Of a DNA stretch of 64,000 nt, positions 1 to 15,838 are shown one piece after another (within the stretch, counting starts at the first letter, position 1; each line of letters opens with the position of its first letter). Made by a program: the position numbers and the translations under genes. The notes under the pieces were generated by a model that searched no databases, was not told the origin of the DNA, and was given only the letters and a program-made list of their open reading frames with translations. The DNA is from Escherichia coli (GTDB lineage: Bacteria; Pseudomonadota; Gammaproteobacteria; Enterobacterales; Enterobacteriaceae), in assembly GCF_024223415.1 (NCBI RefSeq), contig NZ_CP100500.1; one strand, given 5' to 3'.

Positions 1-72
1 GCGAAGCGCGTAACCGTTGCCCGTCCGGTTGTGTCGCTGTATTCGCCGCCCGTATCCGTCAGGGGGAAACCT

Positions 73-303: not shown

Positions 304-523
304 AATACCTTTTGATGTTCTTATTCATTCTGAAAACGCATTAATCCGTGCAAAGGAAATGGACGCATTACTACTTAAGTTAATTGATGTGCCGGAAAGT
401 GGCGATGAATCTGATTCAATAATGTTTTCTGCCGTGCGTACGCTATTAACGCATGTTATTAATGAATTAAATACAGTGATGGCAATTCACGAGAATAATA
501 AAGCGCAGCACACCGGAGAATAA
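296..523 (+). CDS. hypothetical small protein (about 75 aa)
   Basis: ORF in track; internal ATG at 296 (MHKIPF...) with GGGAGAAAG RBS, overlaps stop of upstream ORF; no recognisable family. Confidence 0.35.
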   Translation: MHKIPFDVLIHSENALIRAKEMDALLLKLIDVPESGDESDSIMFSAVRTLLTHVINELNTVMAIHENNKAQHTGE

Positions 524-528
524 AAACC

Positions 529-828
529 ATGAAAAATAAAAATTCTGGCGTTAATGCCAGCGGCCCCGCTCGGCCTGAATTTATGAACGGCGATATTTAC
601 CGCGACCAGTACGGCGGCACGGTAACGATTAAAGGCGTGGAGGAACGGCGCATCACTTACCGCCGTGAAGGCTACGAATATGATTGCGTGATGCCTGTTT
701 ATCAGTTCCGGCGTGATTTTTCTCTGGTACAGGCAGCGCCCCGCAGTAAACCAACCAGCAGGGAGAAAGCACGCGCCAATATTCAGGAAATAAAAAAGAT
801 GCTTAACGTATTCAGGGGTAAAAAATGA
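529..828 (+). CDS. hypothetical protein (99 aa)
   Basis: ORF in track, stop overlaps start of primase gene (operon-like coupling); no recognisable family. Confidence 0.4.
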   Translation: MKNKNSGVNASGPARPEFMNGDIYRDQYGGTVTIKGVEERRITYRREGYEYDCVMPVYQFRRDFSLVQAAPRSKPTSREKARANIQEIKKMLNVFRGKK

Positions 829-2573
829 AACTGGCACCGAACGTAAAAAAACAGCCGCGTGGAATAAAACACAAAGACACAGAGGTGATTATCTTTGCGG
901 GTAGTGATGCCTGGGCGCACGCGAAACAGTGGCAGGAACAGGACGGCCCCGCATCCGGCGATGATGTGCCGCCTGTGTGGCTCGGGCCAAATCAGCTTGC
1001 TGAACTGGATGCACTGAAAATTGTACCGGAGGGAAAAAAACGCGTAAGGCTGTACAGGGCCGGAGAACTGGATTTGGTGGAGACCAAAAAGATTGGTCAG
1101 AAGCTGGCGGCGGCAGATATTCAGGATGCGAATTTTTACTCTGAAGGAATGCACGGCCAGAAGGTGCAGAACTGGCGGCGCTATCTGAGTGCTGAGCGTG
1201 AAAATATTGCCGCAGGGCTTACCATGCCGGAACAGAAAAAAGCACAACTTTCACAGATGGCAGACAGTGAACGGGCACAGCTTCTTTCTTCCCGCTTTGA
1301 TGGTGTCTGCGTCCATGCAGAAAGTGAAATCGTTCACGTATGGCGCGGCGGGGTATGGTGTCCGGTCAGCACAATGGAACTTAGCCGCGAAATGGTGGCG
1401 ATCTATTCAGAGCACAGGGCCACTTTCAGCAAGCGCGTAATCAATAACGCCGTGGAAGCGTTAAAAGTTATTGCCGAACCAATGGGCGAGCCGTCCGGCG
1501 ATTTGCTGCCGTTCGCCAATGGTGCGCTTGACCTGAAAACGGGGGAATTTTCCCCGCACACGCCGGAGAACTGGATCACCACGCACAACGGCATTGAGTA
1601 CACGCCACCAGCACCAGGGGAGAATATCTGCGACAACGCGCCAAACTTTCATAAATGGCTTGAGCACGCAGCCGGAAAAGACCCGCGCAAGATGATGCGT
1701 ATATGTGCCGCGCTGTACATGATTATGGCGAACCGGTACGACTGGCAGATGTTTATTGAGGCCACCGGAGACGGCGGGAGCGGCAAAAGTACATTCACAC
1801 ACATAGCCAGCCTTCTGGCAGGGAAACAGAACACGGTAAGCGCTGAGATGACATCGCTTGATGATGCTGGTGGGCGTGCGCAGGTTGTCGGGAGTCGGCT
1901 TATTGTCCTGGCAGACCAGCCGAAATATACAGGCGAAGGAACGGGCATCAAGAAAATCACGGGCGGAGACCCCGTGGAAATAAACCCGAAATATGAGAAG
2001 CGTTTTACGGCGGTAATCAGGGCGGTGGTGCTGGCTACCAACAATAACCCGATGATATTCACCGAACGGGCCGGAGGTGTGTCACGTCGTCGCGTAATTT
2101 TCCGTTTCGACAATATCGTCAGTGAGGCTGAAAAAGACAGGGAGCTACCGGAAAAGATTGCGGCTGAAATCCCTGTCATTATCCGCCGCTTGCTGGCGAA
2201 CTTTGCCGACCCTGAAAAGGCACGGGCTTTACTCATTGAACAGCGAGACGGTGATGAAGCTCTGGCAATAAAGCAACAGACGGATCCGGTTATTGAGTTT
2301 TGCCAGTTTCTGAATTTTCTGGAGGAAGCGCGCGGCCTGATGATGGGCGGCGGCGGTGACTCTTCCAGGTACACGACCAGAAACAGCCTTTACCGCGTCT
2401 ATCTGGCGTTTATGGCGTATGCAGGCAGGAGCAAACCGCTAAACGTAAATGACTTTGGCAAGGCTATGAAGCCAGCGGCGAAAGTTTACGGACATGAATA
2501 TATAACGCGCAGGATTAAAGGGTTTACGCAAACCAACGTGACAACAACAGACGACTGCGACGCGTTTTTATAA
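825..2573 (+). CDS. phage/plasmid primase-helicase, P4/D5 family C-terminal domain with P-loop NTPase
   Basis: 582 aa ORF; Walker A motif GDGGSGKST followed by hydrophobic strand plus acidic Walker B-like LIVLADQ; architecture typical of satellite/PICI pri-rep proteins; iteron cluster immediately downstream. Confidence 0.75.
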   Translation: MKLAPNVKKQPRGIKHKDTEVIIFAGSDAWAHAKQWQEQDGPASGDDVPPVWLGPNQLAELDALKIVPEGKKRVRLYRAGELDLVETKKIGQKLAAADIQDANFYSEGMHGQKVQNWRRYLSAERENIAAGLTMPEQKKAQLSQMADSERAQLLSSRFDGVCVHAESEIVHVWRGGVWCPVSTMELSREMVAIYSEHRATFSKRVINNAVEALKVIAEPMGEPSGDLLPFANGALDLKTGEFSPHTPENWITTHNGIEYTPPAPGENICDNAPNFHKWLEHAAGKDPRKMMRICAALYMIMANRYDWQMFIEATGDGGSGKSTFTHIASLLAGKQNTVSAEMTSLDDAGGRAQVVGSRLIVLADQPKYTGEGTGIKKITGGDPVEINPKYEKRFTAVIRAVVLATNNNPMIFTERAGGVSRRRVIFRFDNIVSEAEKDRELPEKIAAEIPVIIRRLLANFADPEKARALLIEQRDGDEALAIKQQTDPVIEFCQFLNFLEEARGLMMGGGGDSSRYTTRNSLYRVYLAFMAYAGRSKPLNVNDFGKAMKPAAKVYGHEYITRRIKGFTQTNVTTTDDCDAFL

Positions 2574-2860
2574 TTTTTTGTAATTGCTGTCTACCCTGTC
2601 TACCTGAGTAAAGAAAAATACATTTAATTCAGTGCATTAAGTTAGGTAGATAGCCTTTTTTTACTGTCTACCCACTATCTACCCTCTCTACCTGATTTTA
2701 CCAGAATCAGACAGGGAGGTAGACACGGGGTAGATAGTGGATAAAAGCACTCTACCCCGCTGAAAGCCGCGCCATTACTGGCATGAGGGCCACTAAGGTA
2801 GGTAAGGTAGACAAGGGGAGGCACAACTCAAAACTTTTTAAACGAGGGGGTAAAAATAAA
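2574..2860. repeat. iteron cluster, putative replication origin (GTCTACC / GGTAGAC repeats)
   Basis: At least ten copies of 7-mer GTCTACC / GGTAGAC (and variants CTCTACC, GGTAGAT) in both orientations within about 290 bp, directly 3' of the primase gene. Confidence 0.6.
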
Positions 2861-2861
2861 A

Positions 2862-3119
2862 ATGCACACATCAGAAAAATTTAACAATCAGAAGAAATCA
2901 CATAACCGCGCCATTGACCTTACAGAGCACTGGCTGAGGGTGGCGATAAAAATCATCGACCGCAACGCGGGAGAAGGATACGCGAAAGCACATCCCGAAC
3001 TGATAAGCGCATTCATGACCACAGCGGCGGCAAACTTTGCCACGTTGACAGAACGGGAGATTGCCGAAGCGGAACAGGTGACAACCATCAATGTTAAAAC
3101 CGGAGAGCAGACAGCATGA
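2862..3119 (+). CDS. hypothetical protein (85 aa)
   Basis: ORF in track with GGGGG RBS upstream; stop overlaps next gene start. Confidence 0.4.
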   Translation: MHTSEKFNNQKKSHNRAIDLTEHWLRVAIKIIDRNAGEGYAKAHPELISAFMTTAAANFATLTEREIAEAEQVTTINVKTGEQTA

Positions 3120-3526
3120 CAGCACAGATAGCGGCTTACGGGCGGCTGGTGGACGACCCGCAGACAAAACAGACCAGCAAGGGAACACCGATGACGCTGG
3201 CACGTATGGCGGTATCGCTGCCATGCAGCCAGGCACAGGATGGACAGGCGACGTTATGGCTATCGGTCATCGCATTTGGTAAGCAGGCCGACTTCCTGGC
3301 TAAACATCAAAAAGGCGACGTTGCCAGCGTATCCGGCACGATGCAGGTCAGCCAGTGGACCGGACAGAACGGGGAAACGCGGCAGGGTTATCAGGTTATT
3401 GCAGACAGCGTAATCAGTGCCCGTGCGGCACGTCCTGGCGGGAACAGACGCAAAACCACAGGCACACAGGGTAATCAGCCACCAGCGGGAGGCGATGACC
3501 CTTACGGTGATGATATTCCGTTCTGA
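3116..3526 (+). CDS. single-stranded DNA-binding protein (SSB-like, OB fold with acidic DDIPF tail)
   Basis: 136 aa; N-terminal OB-fold-like region, Gly/Pro/Gln-rich linker and C-terminal ...DDPYGDDIPF characteristic of SSB tails. Confidence 0.6.
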   Translation: MTAQIAAYGRLVDDPQTKQTSKGTPMTLARMAVSLPCSQAQDGQATLWLSVIAFGKQADFLAKHQKGDVASVSGTMQVSQWTGQNGETRQGYQVIADSVISARAARPGGNRRKTTGTQGNQPPAGGDDPYGDDIPF

Positions 3527-3536
3527 GGGGGTGACG

Positions 3537-3809
3537 ATGGTACATGACCGGATAGCGGAGGAACTGGAGGCGAAAGGATTTTACCGGAGGGCGGCCGCGC
3601 GATGGGGTGAAGTTATGAGGCTGGTGAGCACTGACAAGGAGCGCGAACAGGTGGCAATGCGACGGCTGGAATGTTCACAGAAGGCACAGAGGCCACCGGA
3701 GCCGCCGGATGATTTAGGCGCTCTGAAAAGGTCAGTTAATCGCACTGAAAAACAAATGGGGATAGCTGGTATTGGCAAAGCAATATGGCGCAACTACCCG
3801 CAGAAGTGA
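3537..3809 (+). CDS. PerC-family-like transcriptional regulator (about 90 aa)
   Basis: Internal ATG at 3537 with GAGGGGG RBS; sequence MVHDRIAEELEAKGFYRRAAARWGEVM resembles N-terminal signature I recall for PerC/Pch-like activators; assignment from memory only. Confidence 0.45.
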   Translation: MVHDRIAEELEAKGFYRRAAARWGEVMRLVSTDKEREQVAMRRLECSQKAQRPPEPPDDLGALKRSVNRTEKQMGIAGIGKAIWRNYPQK

Positions 3810-3816
3810 GCACACA

Positions 3817-3839
3817 GCCGGAGCAATCCGGCTTTTTTG
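3817..3839 (+). terminator. rho-independent terminator
   Basis: GCCGGAGCAATCCGGC hairpin followed by TTTTTT. Confidence 0.6.
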
Positions 3840-3844
3840 CACCC

Positions 3845-3890
3845 AAAAAAAGCCCGATAAGTACAGGAGGCATCTTATCGGGCTTTTGCA
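3845..3890. terminator. second hairpin, possibly bidirectional terminator
   Basis: A-run, AGCCCGATAAG ... CTTATCGGGCT inverted repeat, then T-rich. Confidence 0.45.
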
Positions 3891-3966
3891 TATGAGGTTT
3901 TTTTTGGTGCACTGACACACATGATCGGGATAATCATTTCATAATTTGCAACGTAACTCAATATTG

Positions 3967-3994
3967 TTGCGCAAAATGCAATCATGATTATAAT
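3967..3994 (+). promoter_or_regulatory. sigma70-like promoter (-35 TTGCGC, 16 bp spacer, -10 TATAAT) upstream of capsid module
   Basis: Consensus -10 TATAAT at 3989-3994 with -35-like TTGCGC at 3967-3972; followed by perfect 8+2+8 palindrome CTGGATGAACATCCAG at about 4001-4016. Confidence 0.45.
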
Positions 3995-4050
3995 CAGGAC
4001 TGGATGAACATCCAGTTATGATTTTTTAAGTCAAAGAGGAATTTCTGACT

Positions 4051-4257
4051 ATGGCAGAAGAGAAAAAAGGCGGGGTGACGGTCTACATAAGCCCCGACAT
4101 CGTGGAGGCGCTCAAGGAACGCCACCAGCAGAATGTAAAAGCAGGCATTGCGGCAGGACTTGATCCGCTGGCGATGGTTGAGCCGTCAACAGGCTGGCAG
4201 GTGCGTACCTATTTACGTGCGGCGCTGGGTATCAATCAGGTTCACGGAGGTGAATAA
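4051..4257 (+). CDS. hypothetical small protein (68 aa), first gene of capsid module
   Basis: ORF in track with AAGAGGAA RBS; stop overlaps start of major capsid gene. Confidence 0.45.
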   Translation: MAEEKKGGVTVYISPDIVEALKERHQQNVKAGIAAGLDPLAMVEPSTGWQVRTYLRAALGINQVHGGE

Positions 4258-5312
4258 TGACAGGCAAAGCAACGGCACTTACAACTAACCAGCTTTTCGC
4301 GTACCTGAATCGCGGGGATATTTCGGAATTAAAATTCAGTCCGCTGTTTACCACGCTGTTTTTCCCGAACGTGGCGACCTTCAACACCCAAAACATCATG
4401 CTGGACACCCTGGACATTGAAGAGGTTACGATGTCAGCGTTCTGTTCGCCTATGGTGGGTAGTCAGGTCCAGCGCGATAAAGGGTACGAAACCAGCACAA
4501 TCAAACCTGGCTACATGAAGCCAAAGCACGAAATCGATCCAACAAAGACCATCATGCGCATGGCTGGAGAAGATCCGGCACAGCTTAACGACCCAACCTA
4601 TCGCCGTATGCGCCTGATTACTGGCAACATGCGCCGCCAGGTAAACGCCATTAAAGCGCGTGTTGAATGGCTGGCGGTGAATGCGGTAACGACCGGAAAA
4701 AACATCATTGAGGGCGAAGGCATAGAACGCTATGAAATCGACTGGAAAATACCGGAAAACTGCATCATACAGCAGGCCAGTGGTAAAAAATGGTCCCAGC
4801 AGGATAAAGACATGCACGACCCAATCTATGACATCGAGCTTTATGCTGATCAGGCAGGTTGCCCCGCCAACGTCATGATTATGGGCGGTGAGGTATGGCG
4901 CACATTACGCAGCTTTAAAAAATTCCGTGAACTGTACGATCTTTCCCGTGGATCAGAATCCGCCGCCGAGCTGGCCTGTAAAAACCTGGGCGAAGTGGTG
5001 AGCTTTAAAGGCTATCTTGGTGATCTGGCCCTTATCGTCTATTCCGGCAAATACACTGACAGCGACGGCACCGAAAAATATTTCCTTGAGCCTGATTTGC
5101 TGGTCCTGGGTAACACCAATAATAAAGGGCTGGTGGCATATGGTGCGATTATGGATCAGGAAGCGGTAAGAACGGGCGCAACGCAAAACATGTACTACCC
5201 GAAAAACTGGATTGAGGACGGCGATCCGGCGATTGAGTACGTGCAGACGCACAGCGCACCGCAGCCGGTACCGGCAGATATTCGCAAATTTGTTACCGTC
5301 AAAATTGCTTAA
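4257..5312 (+). CDS. major capsid protein, lambda gpE family
   Basis: 351 aa; segments FSPLFTTLFFPN and PGYMKPKHEIDP match lambda gpE (FDPLFLRLFFRES, PGYVKPKHEVNP) as I recall it; similar length (341 aa) and conserved C-terminal block. Confidence 0.8.
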   Translation: MTGKATALTTNQLFAYLNRGDISELKFSPLFTTLFFPNVATFNTQNIMLDTLDIEEVTMSAFCSPMVGSQVQRDKGYETSTIKPGYMKPKHEIDPTKTIMRMAGEDPAQLNDPTYRRMRLITGNMRRQVNAIKARVEWLAVNAVTTGKNIIEGEGIERYEIDWKIPENCIIQQASGKKWSQQDKDMHDPIYDIELYADQAGCPANVMIMGGEVWRTLRSFKKFRELYDLSRGSESAAELACKNLGEVVSFKGYLGDLALIVYSGKYTDSDGTEKYFLEPDLLVLGNTNNKGLVAYGAIMDQEAVRTGATQNMYYPKNWIEDGDPAIEYVQTHSAPQPVPADIRKFVTVKIA

Positions 5313-5323
5313 CGGGGGATTCT

Positions 5324-5659
5324 ATGGACGCTCCATATATTGAGTTATTTGCAGGCAGCCAGCAGGTATCCACGACGCTGGTACATTTTGCCGCTGATGC
5401 TGGCGTTATTCAGGAATTTACCCCGCTGATGCTGGCAGACAATGGCGAGTTTAAGGCGTGGGATGGTCAGGAATCTGGCAAAGCTGTTTATCTGACTTCG
5501 CACCCCGTGGACACGTCAAAGCAGAAATCAGCACAGTGTTACAAAACGGGGATATTCAATATTGCCGCCGTTAACTGGCCTGACAGCGTCGACACCGATG
5601 CGAAAAAATGCGCCGCCTTTGCGGGTTCCGGCGTATCCGTTCAGCCGCTGGCCCGATAA
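5324..5659 (+). CDS. head decoration protein, lambda gpD family
   Basis: 111 aa; TPLMLADNGEFKAWDG and YKTGIFN...AAFAGSGVSV match lambda gpD (TPLMLDTSSRKLVAWDG, YKSGTF...TAFAGTAISIV); same size as gpD. Confidence 0.7.
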   Translation: MDAPYIELFAGSQQVSTTLVHFAADAGVIQEFTPLMLADNGEFKAWDGQESGKAVYLTSHPVDTSKQKSAQCYKTGIFNIAAVNWPDSVDTDAKKCAAFAGSGVSVQPLAR

Positions 5660-5671
5660 GCAGGGGGAACG

Positions 5672-6085
5672 ATGGCAACGAATGAAAGTATCATGACGCT
5701 ACCGCTGGCGAGTAAATTTAAAGCCGAAGCGCGGGCAATGGCTGACAGAGGTTTATCAACCTACGAGGCCATACACCGACTAAACAAACTGGAAGAACAG
5801 GACAAGCCGCGCGCTGATGCGATTATGGCGCTTCATGAATCTGACGACTACCAGCCGCTGTTACGTGCAATGGCTAACGTGCCTTGTATCGATGTTGGTA
5901 CGGCTAAAAGCATCCTTAGCATGACCATAGAGCAGGAACGCCCGAAGGTTGCACCAGAGCTTACTTCAGCCTTTGAAAACTTTATGGACATGCACAGCCC
6001 GAAAGCCGTATCAGCTGGCATGGCATACGATGGCAGAACCCCGTGCGATGACGGCGACATCGACCGCATACTGAAAACCATCTGA
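5672..6085 (+). CDS. hypothetical protein (137 aa) of capsid/packaging module
   Basis: ORF in track with GGGGGA RBS; no family recognised. Confidence 0.45.
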   Translation: MATNESIMTLPLASKFKAEARAMADRGLSTYEAIHRLNKLEEQDKPRADAIMALHESDDYQPLLRAMANVPCIDVGTAKSILSMTIEQERPKVAPELTSAFENFMDMHSPKAVSAGMAYDGRTPCDDGDIDRILKTI

Positions 6086-6091
6086 GACAAG

Positions 6092-6115
6092 GCCGGAGAA
6101 ATCCGGCTTTTTTTG
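6092..6115 (+). terminator. rho-independent terminator
   Basis: GCCGGAGAAATCCGGC hairpin followed by TTTTTTT; same terminator module as at 3817. Confidence 0.6.
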
Positions 6116-6200
6116 CGGGTCCTTTCCGGCATGTGGACCCGTTACGGGGCGTCGACCTCGCACGTTTTCGCTATTTATGACGTTTTTCCGTGAAGGTGAC
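6110..6200 (+). other. lambda-type cos site 1 (cosQ-like, cosN GGGCGTCGACCT at 6147-6158, downstream segment)
   Basis: GGGTCCTTTCCGG...GTTACGGGGCGTCGACCTCGCACGTTTTCGCTATTTATGA closely matches the lambda cos region as I recall it (ACGGGTCCTTTCCGG...GTTACGGGGCGGCGACCTCGCGGGTTTTCGCTATTTATGAAAATTTTCCGG). Confidence 0.7.
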
Positions 6201-6247
6201 ACCACCACCACTTGATTAATATTTAACCATGTAGTTAAGGTAACATT

Positions 6248-6682
6248 ATGATTGATAAAGCTTGTTTTGTAAGTCAGCAGGAAATAGCTGAACATTTCAA
6301 TGTTAACAGAACCACTATTCGCGCATGGACCAAACAGGGGATGCCGTATCTTAATGCGGATCGCGGAAAGTCTGGCGGTTATCACATCGGGCATACATTG
6401 TTTTGGTATTCAGGTAAAAGCCATCTTCAGACCATCGGATATCACGTAGAAACCAGTGCGCTGGAAAAAATTATGTTTGCCAGGCTGCTTTCATCTGAGC
6501 GTGACGAGTACTCCAGTGAAGAAACAGAACATCGATTTGATGAAGGTTTGCAGATTTACGGCTATTCACCGGAAGATGTGAGCAAGGCACGAAATAAAAT
6601 GGCTGGCTTTCTGGCTGGGTGGCGTCATGCCGTAAGCGTTCGCCGTGCCAGCATGGAGCAATCAGCCGATACAGAACAGTAA
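6248..6682 (+). CDS. terminase small subunit, lambda Nu1-like (N-terminal winged HTH)
   Basis: 144 aa; QQEIAEHFNVNRTTIRAWTKQGMPYL...HTLFWYSGK aligns with lambda Nu1 KKQLADIFGASIRTIQNWQEQGMPVL...AVIKWYAER; about 90 bp downstream of cosN-like site as in lambda. Confidence 0.7.
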   Translation: MIDKACFVSQQEIAEHFNVNRTTIRAWTKQGMPYLNADRGKSGGYHIGHTLFWYSGKSHLQTIGYHVETSALEKIMFARLLSSERDEYSSEETEHRFDEGLQIYGYSPEDVSKARNKMAGFLAGWRHAVSVRRASMEQSADTEQ

Positions 6683-6729
6683 AGCCGATAACTTGTTAAT
6701 CACGCGCAGCAATGCGTGTGATTTTTGCA

Positions 6730-6850
6730 CACTTCCGGTTAACGGGTACGATGTCCGGTTTGTTTGTACATTTTTTGCACATGTCCGGTTCGCAGAAAGC
6801 ATGTTTTTATATTTTTCAGATAGTTAACTTGCAGAGAAACCGGACATGGA
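6730..6850. repeat. repeated TGTCCGGTT motifs (putative cosB-like terminase small-subunit binding sites)
   Basis: CACTTCCGGTT (6732), GATGTCCGGTT (6759), CATGTCCGGTT (6790) direct, and AACCGGACATG (6839) inverted. Confidence 0.5.
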
Positions 6851-6935
6851 TCCCGAAAAATTTTCATAAATAGTGAAAACGCGCGGGTTCGACGCCCCGT
6901 AACGGGCCATAATTCCAGAAGGACCCGACGACACC
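6830..6935 (-). other. lambda-type cos site 2, inverted relative to cos site 1
   Basis: Reverse complement reads GGGTCCTTCTGG...CCCGTTACGGGGCGTCGAACCCGCGCGTTTTCACTATTTATGAAAATTTTTCGGG, paralogous to site at 6110-6200 and to lambda cos. Confidence 0.65.
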
Positions 6936-6960
6936 AGACTATCAGAGCGATGGGGGCACA

Positions 6961-7242
6961 ATGACAGAAGCCGAACTACTGGGATTAATCCGCCGCGTTA
7001 CCGGAATCAGCCAGCAGCATGACGAACAGGCCACGCAGCCGGACAGCGTGACCGCCGAAAATTATGTGCGTGTTGTTGCGGAGGTGATGCGCCGTGACGG
7101 TATTGAGCTTAACGGCGTGGATATGCGCGACATACGGATCCGCGTTCTGGAAATGCTGGCATACCGTCGCCGCGTGCAGACGTACAGGGAAAAAGCAAAA
7201 ATAACGTACCACTGGAAGAAGCCGGAACGACTGCGTACGTAA
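6961..7242 (+). CDS. hypothetical protein (93 aa)
   Basis: ORF in track; weak RBS; last ORF of element before repeat-rich end. Confidence 0.3.
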   Translation: MTEAELLGLIRRVTGISQQHDEQATQPDSVTAENYVRVVAEVMRRDGIELNGVDMRDIRIRVLEMLAYRRRVQTYREKAKITYHWKKPERLRT

Positions 7243-7366
7243 TACGTACGGACATCGAGATAACGCAAAATTGCGCTGGCTACATCCCTCACATCTGAGG
7301 ACTGATAACAAGCTGCCTGAAAGACAGTCACAAACTACGAAATTTTCGCAGTTTAATTAATGGTCA

Positions 7367-7670
7367 GCTTAATCGCTAACCCGCTGATATTTTCGGAAAC
7401 ATCAATTTGAGGAAGTCGGCGCGGTAACTCGCTGAACTTAAAGCAAAGCGCAAAATTGCGCTGATTACTGGTTGGAATTGTTCCAGAGTGCAAATTTGCA
7501 CTCTGGCCTAACCCGTTGATTATTTCGAAAACCTGCAATGCAGGAAATCGGGGAAGTAAGCCTAAGCTATTGATTGTTTCGAAAACCACCATTGGGGGAT
7601 GTCGGGAAAGTAAGACTAACCCATTGATTCTTCCACAATCCTCAATGTGAGGAGGCCGGACATCGTGACA
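7367..7670. repeat. four imperfect direct repeats of about 54 bp (CTAACCCNTTGAT...GTAAG), three in tandem
   Basis: Units at about 7373-7427, 7507-7560, 7562-7615, 7616-7670 share CTAACCC(G/A)(C/T)TGAT ... TCGG..AAGTAAG and each contains a short internal inverted repeat. Confidence 0.6.
7483..7506. promoter_or_regulatory. 24-bp perfect palindrome CCAGAGTGCAAATTTGCACTCTGG
   Basis: Perfect dyad symmetry seen directly; nearby related inverted repeats GCGCAA-AA-TTGCGC at 7448-7461 and CGCAA-AA-TTGCG at 7264-7275. Confidence 0.5.
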
Positions 7671-7954
7671 GAGCGTGACAACCAGGTAACTAATCTCGCT
7701 GGTGGGCGTGATGTCGATATGGTGATCCCCATAACGGGTTATCCGTGATCATCCACCAGCTTCATGGCAGATAGCCGGAAAATGATAACGGTTAAGCAAA
7801 ACTGCCAGCAAATTTCCCTTTTGTTTGTTATTGTTCGTCGTTGTTCGTAGAGCTTCAACAAAATGTGTGGTCAGTTGTGTGGTCAGTTTTGAGGTTTTTA
7901 ATTCTTATGTGCTGAAAAACTTATTAATTATCAACTGATAACAAAAATTAGTAA

Positions 7955-8048
7955 GAAATACCCGTATCACCTGATCTGGATAATGCCAGCGTAGGGAAGT
8001 CACGGACCACCAGGTCATTGCTTCTTCACGTTATGGCAGGAGCAAACT
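7955..8048 (+). promoter_or_regulatory. 3' portion of thiM TPP riboswitch (thi-box) and expression platform; 5' half of aptamer absent
   Basis: GAAATACCCGTATCACCTGATCTGGATAATGCCAGCGTAGGGAAGT matches the well-studied E. coli thiM aptamer 3' half from memory; expected upstream GGGGTGCCCTTCTGCGTGAAGGCTGA is replaced by AT-rich unrelated sequence. Confidence 0.6.
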
Positions 8049-8837
8049 ATGCAAGTCGACCTGCTGGGTTCAGCGCAATCTGCGCACGCGTTACACCTTT
8101 TTCACCAACATTCCCCTCTTGTGCACTGCATGACCAATGATGTGGTGCAAACCTTTACCGCCAATACCTTGCTGGCGCTCGGTGCATCGCCAGCGATGGT
8201 TATCGAAACCGAAGAGGCCAGTCAGTTTGCGGCTATCGCCAGTGCCTTGTTGATTAACGTTGGCACACTGACGCAGCCACGCGCTCAGGCGATGCGTGCT
8301 GCCGTTGAGCAAGCAAAAAGCTCTCAAACACCCTGGACGCTTGATCCAGTAGCGGTGGGTGCGCTCGATTATCGCCGCCATTTTTGTCATGAACTTTTAT
8401 CTTTTAAACCGGCAGCGATACGTGGTAATGCTTCGGAAATCATGGCATTAGCTGGCATTGCTAATGGCGGACGGGGAGTGGATACCACTGACGCCGCAGC
8501 TAACGCGATACCCGCTGCACAAACACTGGCACGGGAAACTGGCGCAATCGTCGTGGTCACTGGCGAGATGGATTATGTTACCGATGGACATCGTATCATT
8601 GGTATTCACGGTGGTGATCCGTTAATGACCAAAGTGGTAGGAACTGGCTGTGCATTATCGGCGGTTGTCGCTGCCTGCTGTGCGTTACCAGGCGATACGC
8701 TGGAAAATGTCGCATCTGCCTGTCACTGGATGAAACAAGCCGGAGAACGCGCAGTCGCCAGAAGCGAGGGGCCAGGCAGTTTTGTTCCACATTTCCTTGA
8801 TGCGCTCTGGCAATTGACGCAGGAGGTGCAGGCATGA
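8049..8837 (+). CDS. thiM: hydroxyethylthiazole kinase
   Basis: 262 aa ORF, recognised ThiM sequence; overlaps thiD start. Confidence 0.95.
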
Positions 8838-9634
8838 AACGAATTAACGCTCTGACGATTGCCGGTACTGATCCGAGTGGTGGTGCGGGGATTCAGGCCG
8901 ATCTTAAAACCTTCTCGGCACTTGGCGCTTATGGTTGCTCAGTTATTACTGCACTGGTGGCGCAAAATACCCGTGGCGTACAGTCGGTGTATCGCATTGA
9001 GCCTGATTTTGTCGCCGCCCAGCTCGATTCGGTGTTCAGCGATGTGCGAATCGATACCACTAAAATCGGTATGCTGGCGGAAACCGATATTGTTGAAGCG
9101 GTGGCAGAACGGTTGCAACGTTATCAGATCCAAAACGTGGTACTCGACACCGTTATGCTGGCAAAAAGCGGCGACCCGCTGCTTTCACCTTCGGCGGTTG
9201 CTACGCTGCGCAGTCGATTATTGCCACAGGTTTCATTAATAACGCCAAACTTGCCCGAAGCTGCCGCCTTGCTCGACGCGCCACACGCGCGCACCGAACA
9301 GGAAATGCTGGAACAAGGGCGATCGCTGTTGGCGATGGGCTGTGGCGCAGTGCTAATGAAAGGTGGTCATCTGGATGATGAGCAAAGCCCGGACTGGCTG
9401 TTTACCCGCGAGGGTGAACAACGGTTTACCGCACCGCGCATTATGACCAAAAACACCCACGGCACTGGTTGTACACTCTCTGCGGCGTTGGCTGCACTAC
9501 GCCCGCGCCATACAAACTGGGCTGACACCGTACAGGAGGCAAAAAGCTGGCTTTCATCGGCGTTAGCCCAGGCCGACACGCTGGAAGTTGGTCACGGTAT
9601 TGGTCCGGTTCACCACTTCCACGCCTGGTGGTGA
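8834..9634 (+). CDS. thiD: hydroxymethylpyrimidine / phosphomethylpyrimidine kinase
   Basis: 266 aa ORF, recognised ThiD. Confidence 0.95.
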
Positions 9635-9689
9635 GCACCGTACTATAGCTGCTTTGGTTATTGTCAGCCTTTGGCACTGACATTCAGGG

Positions 9690-10517
9690 ATGAAACCAAT
9701 GCAGCTAAGAATTACCAGTCGAAAAAAACTCACCTCTCTATTATGCGCTCTTGGGCTAATTTCCATCGTTGCAATTTATCCGCGTCAGACGGTGAATTTT
9801 TTCTATTCGACAGCAGTTCAGATTACAGACTACATCCACTTCTACGGTTATCGCCCGGTTAAATCTTTCGCTATTCGCATTCCTGCCAGTTACACCATTC
9901 ACGGAATAGATGTTTCGCGCTGGCAGGAGCGGATCGACTGGCAGCGGGTGGCAAAAATGCGCGACAACGGTATCCGCTTACAGTTTGCTTTTATTAAGGC
10001 GACGGAAGGCGAAAAGCTGGTGGACCCCTATTTTTCGCGTAACTGGCAACTAAGCCGCGAAAATGGCCTGCTGCGTGGGGCGTATCATTATTTCTCCCCG
10101 TCGGTATCCGCTTCAGTTCAGGCGAGATTATTTCTGCAAACGGTGGATTTCTCACAAGGCGATTTCCCTGCCGTGCTGGACGTAGAAGAACGGGGAAAAT
10201 TATCGGCAAAAGAATTACGCAAGCGGGTAAGTCAGTGGCTAAAAATGGTCGAAAAAAGTACGGGGAAAAAGCCGATTATTTACTCAGGAGCCGTTTTTTA
10301 TCACACCAATCTGGCGGGCTATTTCAATGAATATCCGTGGTGGGTGGCTCACTACTATCAACGTCGTCCGGACAATGACGGAATGGCCTGGCGCTTCTGG
10401 CAGCATTCCGACCGTGGACAGGTAGATGGCATCAATGGTCCGGTGGATTTTAATGTATTTAATGGCACGGTGGAGGAGTTGCAGGCATTCGTTGATGGGA
10501 TTAAAGAAACGCCTTAA
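9690..10517 (+). CDS. yegX: glycoside hydrolase family 25 (lysozyme-like) protein
   Basis: 275 aa; N-terminal hydrophobic segment; GH25-like region (IHGIDVSRWQ...); conserved position next to thiD. Confidence 0.8.
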   Translation: MKPMQLRITSRKKLTSLLCALGLISIVAIYPRQTVNFFYSTAVQITDYIHFYGYRPVKSFAIRIPASYTIHGIDVSRWQERIDWQRVAKMRDNGIRLQFAFIKATEGEKLVDPYFSRNWQLSRENGLLRGAYHYFSPSVSASVQARLFLQTVDFSQGDFPAVLDVEERGKLSAKELRKRVSQWLKMVEKSTGKKPIIYSGAVFYHTNLAGYFNEYPWWVAHYYQRRPDNDGMAWRFWQHSDRGQVDGINGPVDFNVFNGTVEELQAFVDGIKETP

Positions 10518-10568
10518 ATAAGAAGCAGTGATATACTCCCACCAGACTCCCCGGCAGGAAAAAGACAA

Positions 10569-11315
10569 ATGGAACAAGCGCATACCCAGCTGATTGCCCA
10601 ACTGAACGAGCGTATTTTAGCGGCGGATAACACGCCGCTTTATATTAAGTTTGCCGAAACGGTAAAAAATGCCGTGCGCAGCGGGGTGCTGGAGCATGGC
10701 AATATTTTGCCCGGTGAGCGTGATTTAAGTCAGTTAACCGGCGTTTCGCGCATTACGGTGCGCAAGGCGATGCAGGCGCTGGAAGAAGAGGGTGTGGTGA
10801 CGCGTTCGCGCGGTTACGGCACGCAGATCAACAACATCTTCGAATACTCGTTGAAAGAAGCGCGAGGTTTTTCTCAGCAGGTGGTATTGCGCGGGAAAAA
10901 GCCCGATACGCTATGGGTTAACAAGCGTGTCGTGAAATGTCCCGAAGAAGTCGCGCAGCAGCTGGCGGTCGAAGCAGGAAGTGATGTCTTTTTGCTTAAG
11001 CGTATTCGCTATGTCGATGAAGAAGCGGTATCGATTGAGGAATCGTGGGTTCCGGCGCATTTAATTCATGATGTTGATGCCATCGGGATTTCACTTTATG
11101 ACTATTTCCGCAGCCAGCACATTTACCCACAACGTACGCGTTCCCGCGTTAGCGCCCGGATGCCAGATGCCGAGTTTCAGTCACATATTCAGTTAGATAG
11201 CAAAATACCGGTGCTGGTGATCAAGCAAGTGGCGCTTGACCAACAGCAACGGCCTATTGAATACAGCATTAGCCACTGTCGCAGCGATCTATACGTTTTT
11301 GTGTGCGAGGAGTAG
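10569..11315 (+). CDS. yegW: GntR-family transcriptional regulator
   Basis: 248 aa; N-terminal GntR-type HTH, UTRA-like C-terminus. Confidence 0.85.
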   Translation: MEQAHTQLIAQLNERILAADNTPLYIKFAETVKNAVRSGVLEHGNILPGERDLSQLTGVSRITVRKAMQALEEEGVVTRSRGYGTQINNIFEYSLKEARGFSQQVVLRGKKPDTLWVNKRVVKCPEEVAQQLAVEAGSDVFLLKRIRYVDEEAVSIEESWVPAHLIHDVDAIGISLYDYFRSQHIYPQRTRSRVSARMPDAEFQSHIQLDSKIPVLVIKQVALDQQQRPIEYSISHCRSDLYVFVCEE

Positions 11316-12254
11316 TTCCTCGCGCGTTGGCGCACAATCACCGCCCCGATGCCCGACAACCCACGACGCCACTGCATTGCCCAGTAATACGGCATCCGCC
11401 AGTGGCAGACCAGAGGCCAGCCCGGCAAGTACGCCACCGGCATGACTGTCGCCCGCCCCAATGGTGTCGACAACTTGCGTTGGAAATGCCGGAATGCAGC
11501 CAGAAGCGTCGTTGCTGAAATACCATGCGCCTTCTTTATCGAGACGAACGATCAACGGCGCGGCAAATTTCTCCTGCCATTGTTTGCCAAGTGTTGTTAT
11601 CTCTGCGGATAAAGCAAAACGTTCGGCGGCAATCTCAGCCTCTTGACGATTGAGCGACACTAAAGGTCGACAGGCCATGATCCGCGCCAGTAATGCATCC
11701 GGGATATCGCCAATACGTGGGCCAAAATCGATAAACGGCGTCACGTCTTGCAGCTTTTCCAGCCATTCCACTAATAATTCGCCGCAGGGCGAGGCCAGTT
11801 GATAACCGGAAAAATAGAGCAGGCTGCCAGGCGCAACGGTTAATCGCGCCAGACACTGGCGATTCCACTGATTTTCCACACCGCTGAATGACATAAAAGT
11901 GCGTTCGCCATCCGGCTCAACCAGCGCCAGACACCAGCCGTTATCACCTTCGGCGTTATCGATCAGGCTGATTAAGCCCTCTTTTGCCATCCGGTTGCGA
12001 ATAATCTCCGCCCACACGCCCTGACCGAGCGGCAAGGCATTACCCGCTTCGATGCCGAGGCGCTTTAACGCCACGGCAATATTCAGTGCGCAGCCGCCAA
12101 CGTTAACGCTCTGCTGTTTCAGTTCGATATCGCACCCACGCCAGGGGAGGGCATAAGCGTCGGCGATCACGTCAATGACCGCCGCGCCGACGACCATCAC
12201 CGACTGACGCGTGGTTAATTCAGGCAGCAGCGTGTGTAATCGAGCGCCGCTCAT
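11289..12254 (-). CDS. yegV: PfkB-family sugar/nucleoside kinase
   Basis: 321 aa; PfkB motifs (GGCALN, DTIGAGD); conserved synteny. Confidence 0.85.
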   Translation of the reverse strand: MSGARLHTLLPELTTRQSVMVVGAAVIDVIADAYALPWRGCDIELKQQSVNVGGCALNIAVALKRLGIEAGNALPLGQGVWAEIIRNRMAKEGLISLIDNAEGDNGWCLALVEPDGERTFMSFSGVENQWNRQCLARLTVAPGSLLYFSGYQLASPCGELLVEWLEKLQDVTPFIDFGPRIGDIPDALLARIMACRPLVSLNRQEAEIAAERFALSAEITTLGKQWQEKFAAPLIVRLDKEGAWYFSNDASGCIPAFPTQVVDTIGAGDSHAGGVLAGLASGLPLADAVLLGNAVASWVVGHRGGDCAPTREELLLAHKNV

Positions 12255-13255
12255 ACCGCCTCCCGTTGTTGACGATATTTCGCCAGCGCTGTGGCATAGC
12301 GGTTGAAATCAAGCTGATTTACCGCATCCAGCTCCGCCTTTAACGCAGGATCGATAGCGTTAATGCCATGCAACGCGCCGCAGATTGCCGTCGCCATAGC
12401 ACCGATGGTGTCTGTATCGCCGCCAAGGTTAGCGCACAGTACGGCGCAACGGTTCGGGTCGGTTTGTGCCAGTTCAACCAGCGCAATGGCGCACGGAACG
12501 GACTCAATAGTGCTGGTACCTGCGCCAACGACCTGGTAAAGCTGTTCGCTGGCGGATTCGGTGCCGTCGGCATTGCGCACAATTTTCAGCGCAATCTCCA
12601 ACCGCGCTGCCAGTGAGGCGCTGAACGTAGTGATGCGTTTTTGCTGTGCATGTCGCGCAATTGAAGGCAGGGAATCAACAATCGCTGACCAGCTTTCTCC
12701 GTCAATGGCACGAGAAATCGCCCATGCGATGACTACCGCGCCTGCAACCGCCAGATCGGATTTATGGGTCGGGCTGGACGCCAGCGCTACATCATCAATA
12801 AAGGAATCAACATCACGCGCCGGAAGCAAACAACCTAATGGCGAGACGCGCATCGCTGCGCCGTTGGTCACGCCGTTGTTTTCCAGTTCAGCAACGGGTT
12901 TACCGTCGCGAATGGCGTTAAGCGCAATCTTCGAGGTCGGACCTAGTACGTTTTTGTTAAAGGCGTCGAAACGCAGCGCCCAGTCGAGAATATTACGCCC
13001 AATCAGATCCGGATCGATCTTGCCTTCACGTTCCAGTAACGCATCCGCCAGACACAGCGCCATCGAGGTATCGTCGGTGAATTCGGCGCGGTTAAAATAA
13101 CAGGCCGCGTTATTCTCCTTTGGTCCAGGAAGAAAACGGTCAATCCAGCCAAAGTGTGCTTTAACGCGGCTGCGTGGCCAAAGCTCGGAGGGCATCCCCA
13201 TCGCATCCCCTAACGCCTGCCCATAAAGAGCACCGAGAATACGTTCTGTTTTCAT
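12251..13255 (-). CDS. yegU: ADP-ribosylglycohydrolase family protein
   Basis: 334 aa; ADP-ribosylglycohydrolase-like sequence; translationally coupled to yegT and yegV. Confidence 0.85.
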   Translation of the reverse strand: MKTERILGALYGQALGDAMGMPSELWPRSRVKAHFGWIDRFLPGPKENNAACYFNRAEFTDDTSMALCLADALLEREGKIDPDLIGRNILDWALRFDAFNKNVLGPTSKIALNAIRDGKPVAELENNGVTNGAAMRVSPLGCLLPARDVDSFIDDVALASSPTHKSDLAVAGAVVIAWAISRAIDGESWSAIVDSLPSIARHAQQKRITTFSASLAARLEIALKIVRNADGTESASEQLYQVVGAGTSTIESVPCAIALVELAQTDPNRCAVLCANLGGDTDTIGAMATAICGALHGINAIDPALKAELDAVNQLDFNRYATALAKYRQQREAV

Positions 13256-14529
13256 TTAACTTCCCCTTGTGTCAACGCAATATCGCGATCATCGACCTTG
13301 ATAGCCGTAATTTCGTTGTCGGATTCGCGGAAAAAAATCATGAACAGCACGGCGATAATGGCAATCATCACCGCGCCGAAAGTCCACATCCCGGACCAGT
13401 TGAAAGTCAGTCCGTTTACCGGTTCCTGATAAGCGAACATCTTTTCCATCATCACACCGCCAAGACGATAGCCGAGCAAACTGCCGAAGCCCTGGCAGCA
13501 GAGCGTGATCAGCCCCTGCGCAGCGGTACGCATATGCACGGGGGCTTTTTTATCGACATAGATGTAAGCGGTAACGTAGTAAAAATCGTAACTTACGCCG
13601 TGAAGCAAAATACCGAGGAACAGTAACGCGTAGGTGAAATATTCATCCGCACTACCGTAAATAAAGAAGCCATAGCGGATCGCAGCGGTGACCAGACCAA
13701 GCAATAATACCTTTTTGATACCAAAGCGTTTAGTGAAAAACGGCAATGCCAGCATAAAGAAGATTTCAGAGAACTGGCCGAGCGTCATCCAGCCGGTGGC
13801 GTTTTTCATGCCAACTTCGGTCAGATAACCGTTGGCAAAGATGTAATAGAACGCTAGTGGCATCGCAAACAGGAATGAACAGAAGAAAAAGACGAGGAAG
13901 TTTTTATCGCGCAGCAGGATCAGCGCATCCAGGCCGAGCATGACTTTAATATCCATTTTGCCGGTGCTTTTTGGTGGCGTGTCGGGCAGGAAAAACGCAA
14001 ACACACCGAGCAGAGCAGAACTTCCGGCGGTAATCAGCAGCGGGATGTTAGTCGGTGAGATATCGGCATACCCCAGTATTTGCGGCAAGAAACCACATGC
14101 CAGACCGGAGGCAATCCAGCCGATAGTGCCCATCACACGAATGCGCGGGAAATCACGCTCAACATCCGGCACGTTGGCAAAAGCGATGCTGTTAGTCAGC
14201 GCAATGGTCGGCATATAGGTTAGCGAGTAGGCCAGCAGTAACGGGAAGAACCCGGCAAAAGTGGTCTGTTGCGCAGCGAAATACATCAGCAGCGCGCCTG
14301 CGAACATCAATACCGCCAGCACTTTCTGCGCCGAGAAAAAGCGGTCAGTGATGGAGCCAACCAGAATTGGCGACAGGATCGCCGCAATGGCGGTACAGGC
14401 ATACGACCAGCCAATTTCTCCGGCACTAAAACCGCTTTTACTTAACCACAACCACAATGGCACAAACCACGCGCCCCAGATAAACCATTCAACAAACATC
14501 ATGAACGACAGCTTTGCTGTTGTTTTCAT
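13252..14529 (-). CDS. yegT: nucleoside:H+ symporter family MFS transporter
   Basis: 425 aa polytopic membrane protein. Confidence 0.85.
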   Translation of the reverse strand: MKTTAKLSFMMFVEWFIWGAWFVPLWLWLSKSGFSAGEIGWSYACTAIAAILSPILVGSITDRFFSAQKVLAVLMFAGALLMYFAAQQTTFAGFFPLLLAYSLTYMPTIALTNSIAFANVPDVERDFPRIRVMGTIGWIASGLACGFLPQILGYADISPTNIPLLITAGSSALLGVFAFFLPDTPPKSTGKMDIKVMLGLDALILLRDKNFLVFFFCSFLFAMPLAFYYIFANGYLTEVGMKNATGWMTLGQFSEIFFMLALPFFTKRFGIKKVLLLGLVTAAIRYGFFIYGSADEYFTYALLFLGILLHGVSYDFYYVTAYIYVDKKAPVHMRTAAQGLITLCCQGFGSLLGYRLGGVMMEKMFAYQEPVNGLTFNWSGMWTFGAVMIAIIAVLFMIFFRESDNEITAIKVDDRDIALTQGEVK

Positions 14530-14785
14530 CTTTTAATTCCTTCATGACAGGTAATGTAAGGTACGCGATGACAATACCACTTAATAATACCTTTTAAATA
14601 CCTTTGCGGTGAAAACTTGACCGCGCTAACATTTTTTCTGATGAATCGAGCCAACAGAAAACGCTGAAAAAACATCCAAAAGATGGAAAAACTCGCCCGT
14701 AACGACCAGGATTATGATTGCCCGCAAAAGGCGGGCCAGGAAAATCCATAGCCGATATCCAATCGGAATTTACGGGAGCATAGTA

Positions 14786-15838
14786 ATGACAGATATTGCG
14801 CAGTTGCTTGGCAAAGACGCCGACAACCTTTTACAGCACCGTTGTATGACTATTCCTTCTGACCAGCTTTATCTCCCCGGACATGACTACGTAGACCGCG
14901 TGATGATTGACAATAATCGCCCGCCTGCGGTGTTACGTAATATGCAGACGTTGTACAACACCGGGCGTCTGGCTGGCACAGGATATCTTTCTATTCTGCC
15001 GGTTGACCAGGGGGTTGAGCACTCTGCCGGAGCTTCATTTGCTGCTAACCCGCTCTACTTTGACCCGAAAAACATTGTTGAACTGGCGATCGAAGCGGGC
15101 TGTAACTGTGTGGCGTCAACTTACGGCGTGCTGGCGTCGGTATCGCGGCGTTATGCGCATCGCATTCCATTCCTCGTCAAACTTAATCACAACGAGACGC
15201 TAAGTTACCCAAACACCTACGATCAAACGCTGTATGCCAGCGTGGAGCAGGCGTTCAACATGGGCGCGGTGGCGGTTGGTGCGACTATCTATTTTGGCTC
15301 GGAAGAGTCACGTCGCCAGATTGAAGAAATTTCTGCGGCTTTTGAACGTGCGCACGAGCTGGGCATGGTGACAGTGCTGTGGGCCTATTTGCGTAACTCC
15401 GCCTTTAAGAAAGATGGCGTTGATTACCATGTCTCCGCCGACCTGACTGGTCAGGCGAACCATCTGGCGGCAACCATAGGTGCAGATATCGTCAAACAAA
15501 AAATGGCGGAAAATAACGGCGGCTATAAAGCGATTAATTACGGTTATACCGACGATCGCGTGTACAGCAAGTTAACCAGCGAAAACCCGATTGATCTGGT
15601 GCGTTATCAGTTAGCTAACTGCTATATGGGCCGGGCTGGGTTGATAAACTCCGGCGGTGCTGCGGGCGGTGAAACTGACCTCAGTGATGCAGTGCGTACT
15701 GCGGTTATCAACAAACGCGCTGGCGGAATGGGGCTGATTCTTGGACGTAAAGCGTTCAAGAAATCGATGGCTGACGGCGTGAAACTGATTAACGCCGTGC
15801 AGGACGTTTATCTCGATAGCAAAATTACTATCGCCTGA
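14786..15838 (+). CDS. fbaB: class I fructose-bisphosphate aldolase
   Basis: Start at internal ATG 14786 ([16 protein letters not shown]) giving 350 aa as in FbaB. Confidence 0.9.

Follow-up and report, generated by a model that had tools for sequence, protein, structure and literature searches.

A PICI-like element ends inside the TPP riboswitch aptamer of thiM in Escherichia coli

Gene content of the locus and the residual thiM leader

The window, which is the whole stretch of 64,000 nucleotides of Escherichia coli DNA that we analyzed, opens inside an element of phage-satellite type that runs directly into the leader of thiM, followed by thiD (Table 1). All of the element genes in the window are co-oriented with thiM. 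The lengths of thiM and thiD are those of the annotated genes in strain Z1323CEC0013 (locus L001), which carries a complete related element, and in strain D9 (locus L002), where the site is empty. Because the window starts inside the element, the other element end was not found in it: the window holds no 5′ half of the riboswitch aptamer, no second attachment core and no second doubled 12-mer. A scan of the whole window at the Rfam gathering threshold finds SIB, CyaR, naRNA4 and JUMPstart.

Table 1 Positions of the element features and of the thiM region in the window
Feature	Position	Strand	Remarks
Right-hand ~8 kb of PICI	1–7953	+	Left end (int, alpA region, attL) beyond window
PICI primase / replication initiator	825–2573	+	582 aa; phrog_864 DNA primase, E 7.8e-168
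Single-stranded DNA-binding protein (SSB)	3116–3526	+	phrog_44, E 1.7e-40
Major head protein homologue, c1499-like	4257–5312	+	phrog_29, E 3.1e-109
Head decoration protein homologue, c1500-like	5324–5659	+	phrog_49, E 1.5e-27
cos site region	6110–6215	.	cosN-like GGGCGTCGACCT at 6147–6158, by pattern match
Rpp (redirecting phage packaging protein) homologue	6248–6682	+	144 aa; PDB 6HLK RppC, E 1.6e-33
Non-coding right-end region	7243–7800	.	54-nt repeat units at 7374–7427, 7506–7559, 7560–7613
P-arm block of attachment site	7819–7891	+	TTGTTCGT-type repeats 7831–7848, doubled 12-mer 7864–7887
att core AGAAATACCCGTAT, attR copy	7954–7967	+	14 bp, single occurrence in window
Residual thiM leader	7954–8048	+	P2 3′ strand, J2/4, P4/P5 arm, P1 3′ strand, anti-SD, SD
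thiM	8049–8837	+	Intact ORF, 262 aa
thiD	8834–9634	+	Intact ORF, 266 aa

The element carries a replication module within a rightward, unidirectional set of genes, as PICIs do by the criterion of Fillol-Salom et al. 2018, and the ORFs tested against PHROGs all lie on the + strand. No tail or lysis families were found among the ten ORFs tested. At the sequence level the packaging functions expected of a PICI are represented by the cos-like region, which closely resembles the string ‘CFT073 cos.1’ in the supplement of PMC6092414, and by the Rpp homologue, whose protein also weakly matches the terminase small subunit family phrog_57. The capsid and decoration homologues have counterparts in c1499 and c1500, which are encoded by EcCICFT073 (PMC6092414). 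Based on nucleotide alignment, window 498–7235 is ~91.6% identical to EcCICFT073 in strain CFT073, and this homology ends at 7226–7235. The non-coding region beyond it includes a perfect 24-bp palindrome at 7483–7506 as well as two copies of CGCAAAATTGCGCTG, and pieces of the region recur in unannotated DNA of 981 out of 5,426 E. coli genomes. Gene content and alignment identify window 1–7953 as the right-hand portion of a phage satellite, a cos-type PICI resembling EcCICFT073.

An earlier note on this DNA had placed the end of an element at about 7955, inside the thiM TPP riboswitch, with the 5′ half of the aptamer missing and AT-rich element-side sequence in its place. When window 7300–8200 was compared by megablast with 5,426 complete E. 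coli genomes, the match to the thiM leader set in at query base 655 (window position 7954), at up to 100% identity and within one base of the proposed junction. Nearly all of the 5,426 genomes align solely from this base on, through the leader into thiM, and none of them (0 of 5,426) matches at least 80% of the query in one aligned place. The element side is unrelated to the aptamer and is AT-rich as described, with a GC content of 0.33 over 7825–7974 vs 0.53–0.56 within thiM.

The whole-window scan at the Rfam gathering threshold finds no TPP riboswitch. In a permissive scan of 7600–8150, the TPP model RF00059 matches at 7880–8014 with 36.4 bits, below the gathering score of 54.3 bits that is required for membership as a TPP riboswitch; the uninterrupted thiM leader of strain D9 reaches 71.2 bits. 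True alignment in the window match is confined to P4/P5 and the 3′ strands of P2 and P1; its P3 pairs are all flagged as non-canonical, with no CUGAG motif. The pyrophosphate-sensor arm P4/P5 (aligned with high posterior probability) and the expression platform with its anti-SD and SD are thus retained, and the pyrimidine-sensor arm, which consists of the P2 5′ strand, the P3 hairpin and the CUGAGA junction, is not. Missing from the residual leader are the 5′ strands of P1 and P2, P3, the 5′ CUG belonging to the CUGAGA junction, and the native thiM promoter. The missing 5′ half (GACTCGGGGTGCCCTTCT..GTGAAGGCTGAG) is absent from the entire 64-kb window when up to three mismatches are allowed. 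The covariance-model check for a complete aptamer upstream of thiM was negative, and the loss of the 5′ half described in the earlier note is borne out by both searches. We conclude that the element junction (attR) interrupts the thiM TPP aptamer, whose 5′ half is absent.

The same data bear on whether the element might bring a working substitute for the missing half, so that thiM would still be regulated by TPP. Such substitution does occur in a second, unrelated island at the same site, which carries an 82-bp aptamer copy (see below), and a T two positions before the core is present in both attR and the uninterrupted site attB. The covariance-model result already contradicts it for the window element, in which all P3 pairs are broken, the CUGAG motif is missing and the flanking DNA bears no relation to the aptamer. 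We therefore consider a substitute 5′ half extremely improbable.

Attachment sites, integrase and arm-type repeats

The left end of the element was searched for in related genomes. In strain Z1323CEC0013 the gene order is rcnR, tyrosine integrase, HTH regulator, Icd-like, primase, SSB, capsid, decoration, terS, thiM, and the element measures ~11 kb with int at L001 6150–7370. This agrees with the PICI criteria of Fillol-Salom et al. 2018, by which an integrase lies at the left end beside a specific att site and the element spans about 10–15 kb. The attL of the Z1323CEC0013 element, which consists of the 5′ aptamer half and the core, lies between rcnR and int, and its attR, which consists of the core and the 3′ half, precedes thiM. 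The PGAP annotation of this locus contains no riboswitch. At the empty site of strain D9 the order is rcnR, TPP riboswitch, thiM. The missing aptamer half and a repeated core, which had been predicted for the other element end, are thus found there in the relatives.

The three att sequences were compared side by side. The attL site reads thiM promoter region, GACTCGGGGTGCCCTTCT..GTGAAGGCTG, AGAAATACCCGTAT, element; attR reads element, AGAAATACCCGTAT, CACCTGATCTGGATAATGCCAGCG..., thiM; and attB has both flanks joined via a single copy of the core. The 14-bp core is identical in L001 attL, L001 attR, L002 attB and the window attR. Based on the Rfam alignment of the intact leader, it extends from the final 4 nt of J3/2 across the P2 3′ strand into the beginning of J2/4. 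The attL fragment scores 20.5 bits against RF00059, and since both this and the score of the window attR fall below the gathering score, neither end has a working aptamer. The attP of the element accordingly supplies no functional replacement for the severed part of its target, as is the case for elements of the regulated-gene-integrity type.

Using window 7800–8060 as query and a coverage of at least 80%, the window-type attR junction is seen in 74 (~1.4%) of the 5,424 complete E. coli genomes, among them O157:H7, ST131, ST648, ETEC and animal isolates. With the other end lying outside the window, the junction could in principle stem from deletion, rearrangement or misassembly rather than from site-specific integration. 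The probability of this is practically nil: the same junction recurs in 74 independent complete genomes, attL, attR and attB have a precise common 14-bp core with an adjacent integrase, and the att site was mapped independently by two published catalogues (discussed below), so that this reading is contradicted on all three counts.

The integrase of the relatives is a P4-family tyrosine recombinase (PF13356 + PF00589), and its 99%-identity cluster comprises 588 E. coli sequences. A scan for the integrase using one genome per species gave 13 pattern matches, of which 0 were confirmed. For the copy in the window, whose left end lies outside it, we infer int and attL from these relatives. The P4-family integrase would have recombined the element attP with the core AGAAATACCCGTAT inside the thiM TPP aptamer, and since the element brings no substitute for the severed segment, the aptamer would be split. 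The 5′ strands of P1 and P2 would remain at attL together with P3 and the thiM promoter, pointing into int and, in complete relatives, ~11 kb away. Of the leader, thiMD would retain no more than the P4/P5 arm, the 3′ strands of P1 and P2 and the expression platform. Precise excision would quite likely restore the riboswitch.

The AT-rich DNA next to the junction had also been described as containing two kinds of short repeat, each present twice, that resemble recombinase arm sites. The 12-mer tandem reported at about 7866–7889 corresponds to TGTGTGGTCAGT ×2 in exact tandem at 7864–7887, which was matched in 0 of 100 shuffles, and the second repeat to the TTGTTCGT-type repeats at 7831–7848. Alignment places a ~73-bp block, in which the TTGTTCGT repeats lie together with the doubled 12-mer, on the P arm of the window and on each of the two arms of L001. 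The doubled 12-mer is centered 84–85 bp upstream of the core center on the P arm (85 in the window) and, by computation, 147 bp downstream of it on the P′ arm, just before int. The repeat also co-varies with the integrase, as seen in loci L005, L006 and L007: GTGTGGTCAGTT ×2 lies beside a 76%-identical Salmonella integrase, GTGAGGTCAGTT ×2 beside a 71%-identical Salmonella integrase, and GGTGTAGTTAAT ×2 beside a 67%-identical E. coli integrase that is located at a different site. Because of the shuffling result, the presence on both arms and the co-variation with the integrase, the repeats exceed what is expected by chance, and the resemblance to arm sites holds as far as the DNA itself can tell. 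The doubled 12-mers flanking the core on both arms probably serve as arm-type sites to which the integrase N-terminal domain or AlpA binds.

A comparable arrangement is known from HE-PICIs, in which two co-oriented copies of a doubled motif lie 81 bp upstream and 132 bp downstream of the attP center, and Mageeney et al. 2023 suggested that this motif is bound by integrase arm domains or AlpA (PMC10111431). The spacing is similar to the 84–85 and 147 bp found here, and HE-PICIs and the other regulated-gene-integrity elements (Mageeney et al. 2020, 2023) likewise integrate without a replacement sequence. However, the HE-PICI motif is TGTATTGC rather than TGTGTGGTCAGT, and the HE-PICI target is a prophage late gene whereas the target here is a host riboswitch. 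P4-family integrases acting at tRNA and protein genes resemble the present one in being tyrosine recombinases with an arm-binding N-terminal domain (PF13356 + PF00589) and in using a conserved target that encodes a structured RNA, with a core flanked by arm motifs. Unlike the window element, they carry a replacement segment in attP; the target here is a 5′ UTR riboswitch aptamer, which would be non-functional for as long as the element stays integrated. According to Mageeney et al., a replacement of this kind is the norm for integrases that target gene interiors, exceptions being classed under regulated gene integrity, and PICIs are prone to damage their targets (PMC10111431). The thiM case fits this target-damaging pattern, with a riboswitch as the target.

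The element kind and its att core have been catalogued before. EcCI224 is listed in Table S1 of Fillol-Salom et al. 2018 as Ecol_224 (CP018948.1 1961620–1972242, 10.6 kb, AGAAATACCCGTAT, frmR-thiM; PMC6092414), and the att alignments of Mageeney et al. 2023 include ‘rcnR_thiM.EcCI224’, with a core identical to AGAAATACCCGTAT (PMC10111431). The att core and flanking genes of EcCI224 are identical to those of the window element, and the Ecol_224 attR is 98.1% identical to window 7800–8060. The body of the window element, in contrast, is closer to EcCICFT073, the model Gram-negative cos-type PICI, with which it has the primase, SSB, capsid and decoration homologues, cos and Rpp in common, although the integration module and chromosomal site of EcCICFT073 are unlike its own. 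An EcCI224 integration module joined to an EcCICFT073-like body makes the window element a mosaic. Taking these observations together, it is highly likely that window 1–7953 belongs to the right side of an EcCICFT073-like PICI, that this PICI has the EcCI224 integration module and splits the thiM aptamer without replacing it, and that TPP sensing by thiMD is lost.

Both catalogues enter the EcCI224 site as intergenic, whereas we place it in the interior of an aptamer. The word riboswitch is absent from the main texts and the searched supplements of PMC6092414 and PMC10111431, and thiamin is absent from the main text of PMC6092414. In a literature search of incomplete coverage we found no paper on integration into the thiM riboswitch, and the core only in supplementary tables. 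The new point is modest: the catalogued core is located within the TPP aptamer, which is split there, in Salmonella as well as repeatedly in E. coli.

Distribution of the site and a second island family at the same aptamer

A 201-bp probe centered on the core is contiguous in 4,728 out of 5,424 E. coli genomes, and the leader is interrupted or replaced in the other ~696 (13%). The elements at the thiM site are mosaic, as illustrated by strain A34, which carries waaB and waaO as cargo. The 76%- and 71%-identical integrases come from two Salmonella assemblies, where they lie beside rcnB, and in the Salmonella attL the identical 5′ aptamer half leads into GAAATACCCGTAT, with element DNA beyond. 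Since both integrases are found at the same aptamer half, the riboswitch-splitting site is conserved across genera.

In strain PCN033 (locus L003), an island of ~8 kb lies between two annotated TPP riboswitches. Its 435-aa tyrosine integrase has no BLASTP similarity to the PICI integrase. The attL and attR of this island have in common an 82-bp identity block, CAACCAAACGACTCGGGG...GCCAGCGTAGGG, which is almost the whole aptamer, so that thiM keeps a complete aptamer, though behind element DNA and not behind its own promoter. The second aptamer copy scores 61.3 bits and is situated 67 nt upstream of the island int. The PCN033-type junction was found in 465 genomes, and its variants include an E. 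coli B-type lab strain. The island of E. coli B that carries EcoBLMcrX, described as ‘adjacent to thiM’ (PMC5487053), probably belongs to this family. Islands of the PCN033/EcoBLMcrX type use the same thiM aptamer as their attachment site but are not PICIs, and their integrase is unrelated. Junctions at leader positions 53 and 62 were considered as further PICI types and rejected, because they represent this unrelated island family and its variants. With unrelated PICI and PCN033 integrases acting at one aptamer, the same target has been used twice; one element destroys it and the other rebuilds it.

Predicted consequences for thiMD and their meaning

The TPP aptamer requires the P2/P3 pyrimidine-sensor arm and the P4/P5 pyrophosphate-sensor arm together with P1 for ligand binding and signaling, as the 2006 structures of Serganov and of Edwards and Ferre-D'Amare reportedly show. 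Because the pyrimidine-sensor helix and P1 are gone, the truncated leader in all probability cannot sense TPP. Bastet et al. 2017 (PMC5499598) show that TPP, once bound, prevents translation of thiM, and that a Rho site within the first 34 codons is thereby uncovered. From the numbering used in that study (RBS at G142, AUG at U152; PMC5499598), it follows that transcription starts 150 nt upstream of the AUG, at L002 2946. This is 7 nt downstream of a promoter-like TTTACA-N17-TACCAT (equivalent position in a scan of L001), and it places the core at about +56 to +69 of the transcript. The thiMD genes of a lysogen are without their own promoter and the first ~55 nt of their leader. At attL, the same promoter-like sequence faces int, with no terminator-like site in between.

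Translation of the truncated leader was evaluated against the TPP-free ON state described by Rentmeister et al. 2007, in which nt 71–86 pair with nt 108–125 (the anti-SD) and the SD is freed (PMC1920254). The residual leader keeps both partners, which are located 3′ of the core, and the ON-state helix is present in the MFE folds of either leader, intact or truncated. In ensemble calculations with varied transcript ends, the probability that the SD is unpaired ranges over 0.04–0.67 in the truncated leader vs 0.12–0.54 in the intact apo leader. Because these ranges overlap across transcript ends, equilibrium folding cannot decide the SD state.

As regards transcription, the search for a strong promoter on the element side gave none. 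No σ70-like promoter of at least 9/12 was found in 6900–8100, and the best relaxed candidates, at 7495–7523 and 7361–7391, reach 8/12. Between the last PICI genes and thiM, no intrinsic terminator is predicted on the + strand in 6900–8100. Because the PICI genes are co-oriented with thiM and the last 1.1 kb contains no + strand terminator, we lean slightly toward the view that thiMD would now be transcribed only weakly, or by read-through from the PICI right end, at a low, TPP-independent level that rises on induction of the PICI.

A serious rival to weak read-through expression, given the same anatomy, is near-silencing of thiMD by polar inactivation, with the native promoter removed and none supplied by the element. 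Lysogens would then depend on imported thiamine, since thiD is required in de novo thiamine synthesis. The weakness of the promoter candidates, the low GC content (0.33) of the last 130 bp and the several truncated-leader folds in which the SD is sequestered all speak for it. We nevertheless consider it doubtful, because 74 genomes from many lineages, and Salmonella as well, carry the insertion, thiM is annotated as hydroxyethylthiazole kinase in 60 of the 60 records listed, and thiM and thiD are intact in two PICI-type loci examined (L001 among them). The lack of a + strand terminator separating the PICI genes from thiM and the retention of the ON-state helix partners also weigh against silencing. 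Very little ThiD suffices for vitamin-level demand, which we count as a further point on this side. Low read-through expression thus remains our preferred reading, and the suggestion made in the earlier note, that thiMD may be uncoupled from TPP control or driven by the element, appears plausible from the structure of the locus.

The split might, furthermore, be adaptive in the sense of regulated gene integrity, such that the interruption itself, or the capture of the thiM promoter for int, serves regulation of the PICI or its host and excision restores TPP control. This would be consistent with an attP that lacks a replacement sequence, with a thiM promoter that faces int across a terminator-free interval, with a site conserved across genera despite 24–29% integrase divergence, and with the known tendency of PICIs to damage or disrupt their targets (PMC10111431). 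However, the conservation of the aptamer's own sequence explains the conservation of the site equally well and only 1.4% of the genomes carry the insertion, so that we regard an adaptive role as very unlikely. The physiological effect of the split may be small.

Irrespective of any such role, a PICI att site that was catalogued as “intergenic” is re-labelled as the interior of a well-studied riboswitch. The structured-RNA targets of integrases so far are tRNA, tmRNA and ffs, a short list that a riboswitch aptamer now joins. With the aptamer split, ~1.4% of complete E. coli genomes and some Salmonella would be natural knock-outs of the TPP feedback on thiMD, and in ~13% of E. coli genomes some element interrupts or replaces the upstream part of the thiM leader. 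Riboswitch annotation and thiamine-regulon models fail silently in split strains, and these natural strains can be used to ask what the thiM riboswitch contributes to fitness.

More broadly, riboswitch-aptamer DNA may be a tRNA-like landing pad that unrelated integrases have found independently and with opposite outcomes, the PICI splitting the aptamer and the other island rebuilding it. We consider this generalization unlikely. If it is true, the presence of the satellite would amount to a heritable, reversible switch that removes TPP feedback from thiMD and ties their transcription to the satellite, with int placed behind the thiM promoter, and the near-complete aptamer of the other island may put its integrase under the control of thiamine.

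Other occupants of the thiM aptamer, and variants of its P3 loop

The TPP aptamer of thiM serves as the attachment site not only of the window PICI (a phage satellite) but also of a second integrative island, unrelated to the PICI, in E. coli PCN033 (L003). An identity block of 82 bp in this island restores a complete aptamer ahead of thiM, and a further aptamer copy (61.3 bits) lies 67 nt upstream of the island's integrase gene. The junction of the PCN033 island was found in 465 of 5,424 E. coli genomes, and E. coli B-type strains carry variants of it. In E. coli A34 (L004), the same thiM att site as in the window is occupied by a PICI that is a decayed variant bearing cargo (waaB and waaO), decayed because its primase is frameshifted and its terS truncated.

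The thiM aptamer varies by locus in its P3 loop (L001 5930-5945 and L005 2780-2795 versus L002 2985-2995). The form CTTCTTTGTGAAGG is present in the PICI-bearing E. coli Z1323CEC0013 (L001) and in Salmonella, whereas CTTCTGCGTGAAGG is present in strains D9 (L002, empty site) and PCN033 and in the attL of the published PICI EcCI224. This difference is probably a strain polymorphism.

Feature coordinates in the window and comparison loci
Feature	Locus	Position	Strand	Rfam score
Second integrative island	L003, NZ_CP006632 (outside window)	7090-15100		
waaB, waaO (LPS core glycosyltransferase genes), PICI cargo	L004	8577-10672		
54-nt repeat units (n=3), small hairpin in each	window	7374-7427, 7506-7559, 7560-7613		
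Perfect 24-bp palindrome CCAGAGTGCAAATTTGCACTCTGG	window	7483-7506		
CGCAAAATTGCGCTG, two copies	window	7264-7283, 7449-7468		
SIB RNA (Sib antitoxin), three tandem copies	window	37703-38508	-	141.6-149.5 bits
CyaR sRNA	window	24258-24343	-	above gathering score
naRNA4/REP-like element	window	15869-15939	+	above gathering score
JUMPstart element	window	53606-53644	+	above gathering score
Doubled 12-mer	L001	6090-6113, 16908-16931		
Doubled 12-mer	L005 (Salmonella)	2944-2967		
Doubled 12-mer	L006 (Salmonella)	2919-2942		
Doubled 12-mer	L007 (E. coli, different site)	2953-2978		

Non-coding PICI end and RNA features of the window

The 54-nt repeats, the palindrome and both copies of CGCAAAATTGCGCTG all fall within the non-coding right end of the window PICI (7243-7700). 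Among 5,426 E. coli genomes, 981 contain pieces of this region in DNA that carries no annotation. No Rfam family reached its gathering threshold there in the whole-window scan; the permissive scan was confined to 7600-8150.

Elsewhere, the CyaR, naRNA4/REP-like and JUMPstart hits fit a K-12-like neighbourhood of thiM, gat, cyaR, sib and the polysaccharide cluster. At the SIB locus K-12 has two copies, sibA and sibB, so the copy number differs from the three of the window.

The doubled 12-mer across the integrase clade

Across the P4-family clade, the integrase sequence and the doubled 12-mer located just upstream of int co-vary, the 12-mer taking the forms GTGTGGTCAGTT, GTGAGGTCAGTT and GGTGTAGTTAAT. 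Fillol-Salom 2018 (Table S1, PMC6092414) gives the last form as the 'att' for a different PICI, placed in the gene of an IS110 transposase. Since GGTGTAGTTAAT is of the doubled 12-mer type found upstream of int, this entry may represent an arm motif rather than the crossover core.
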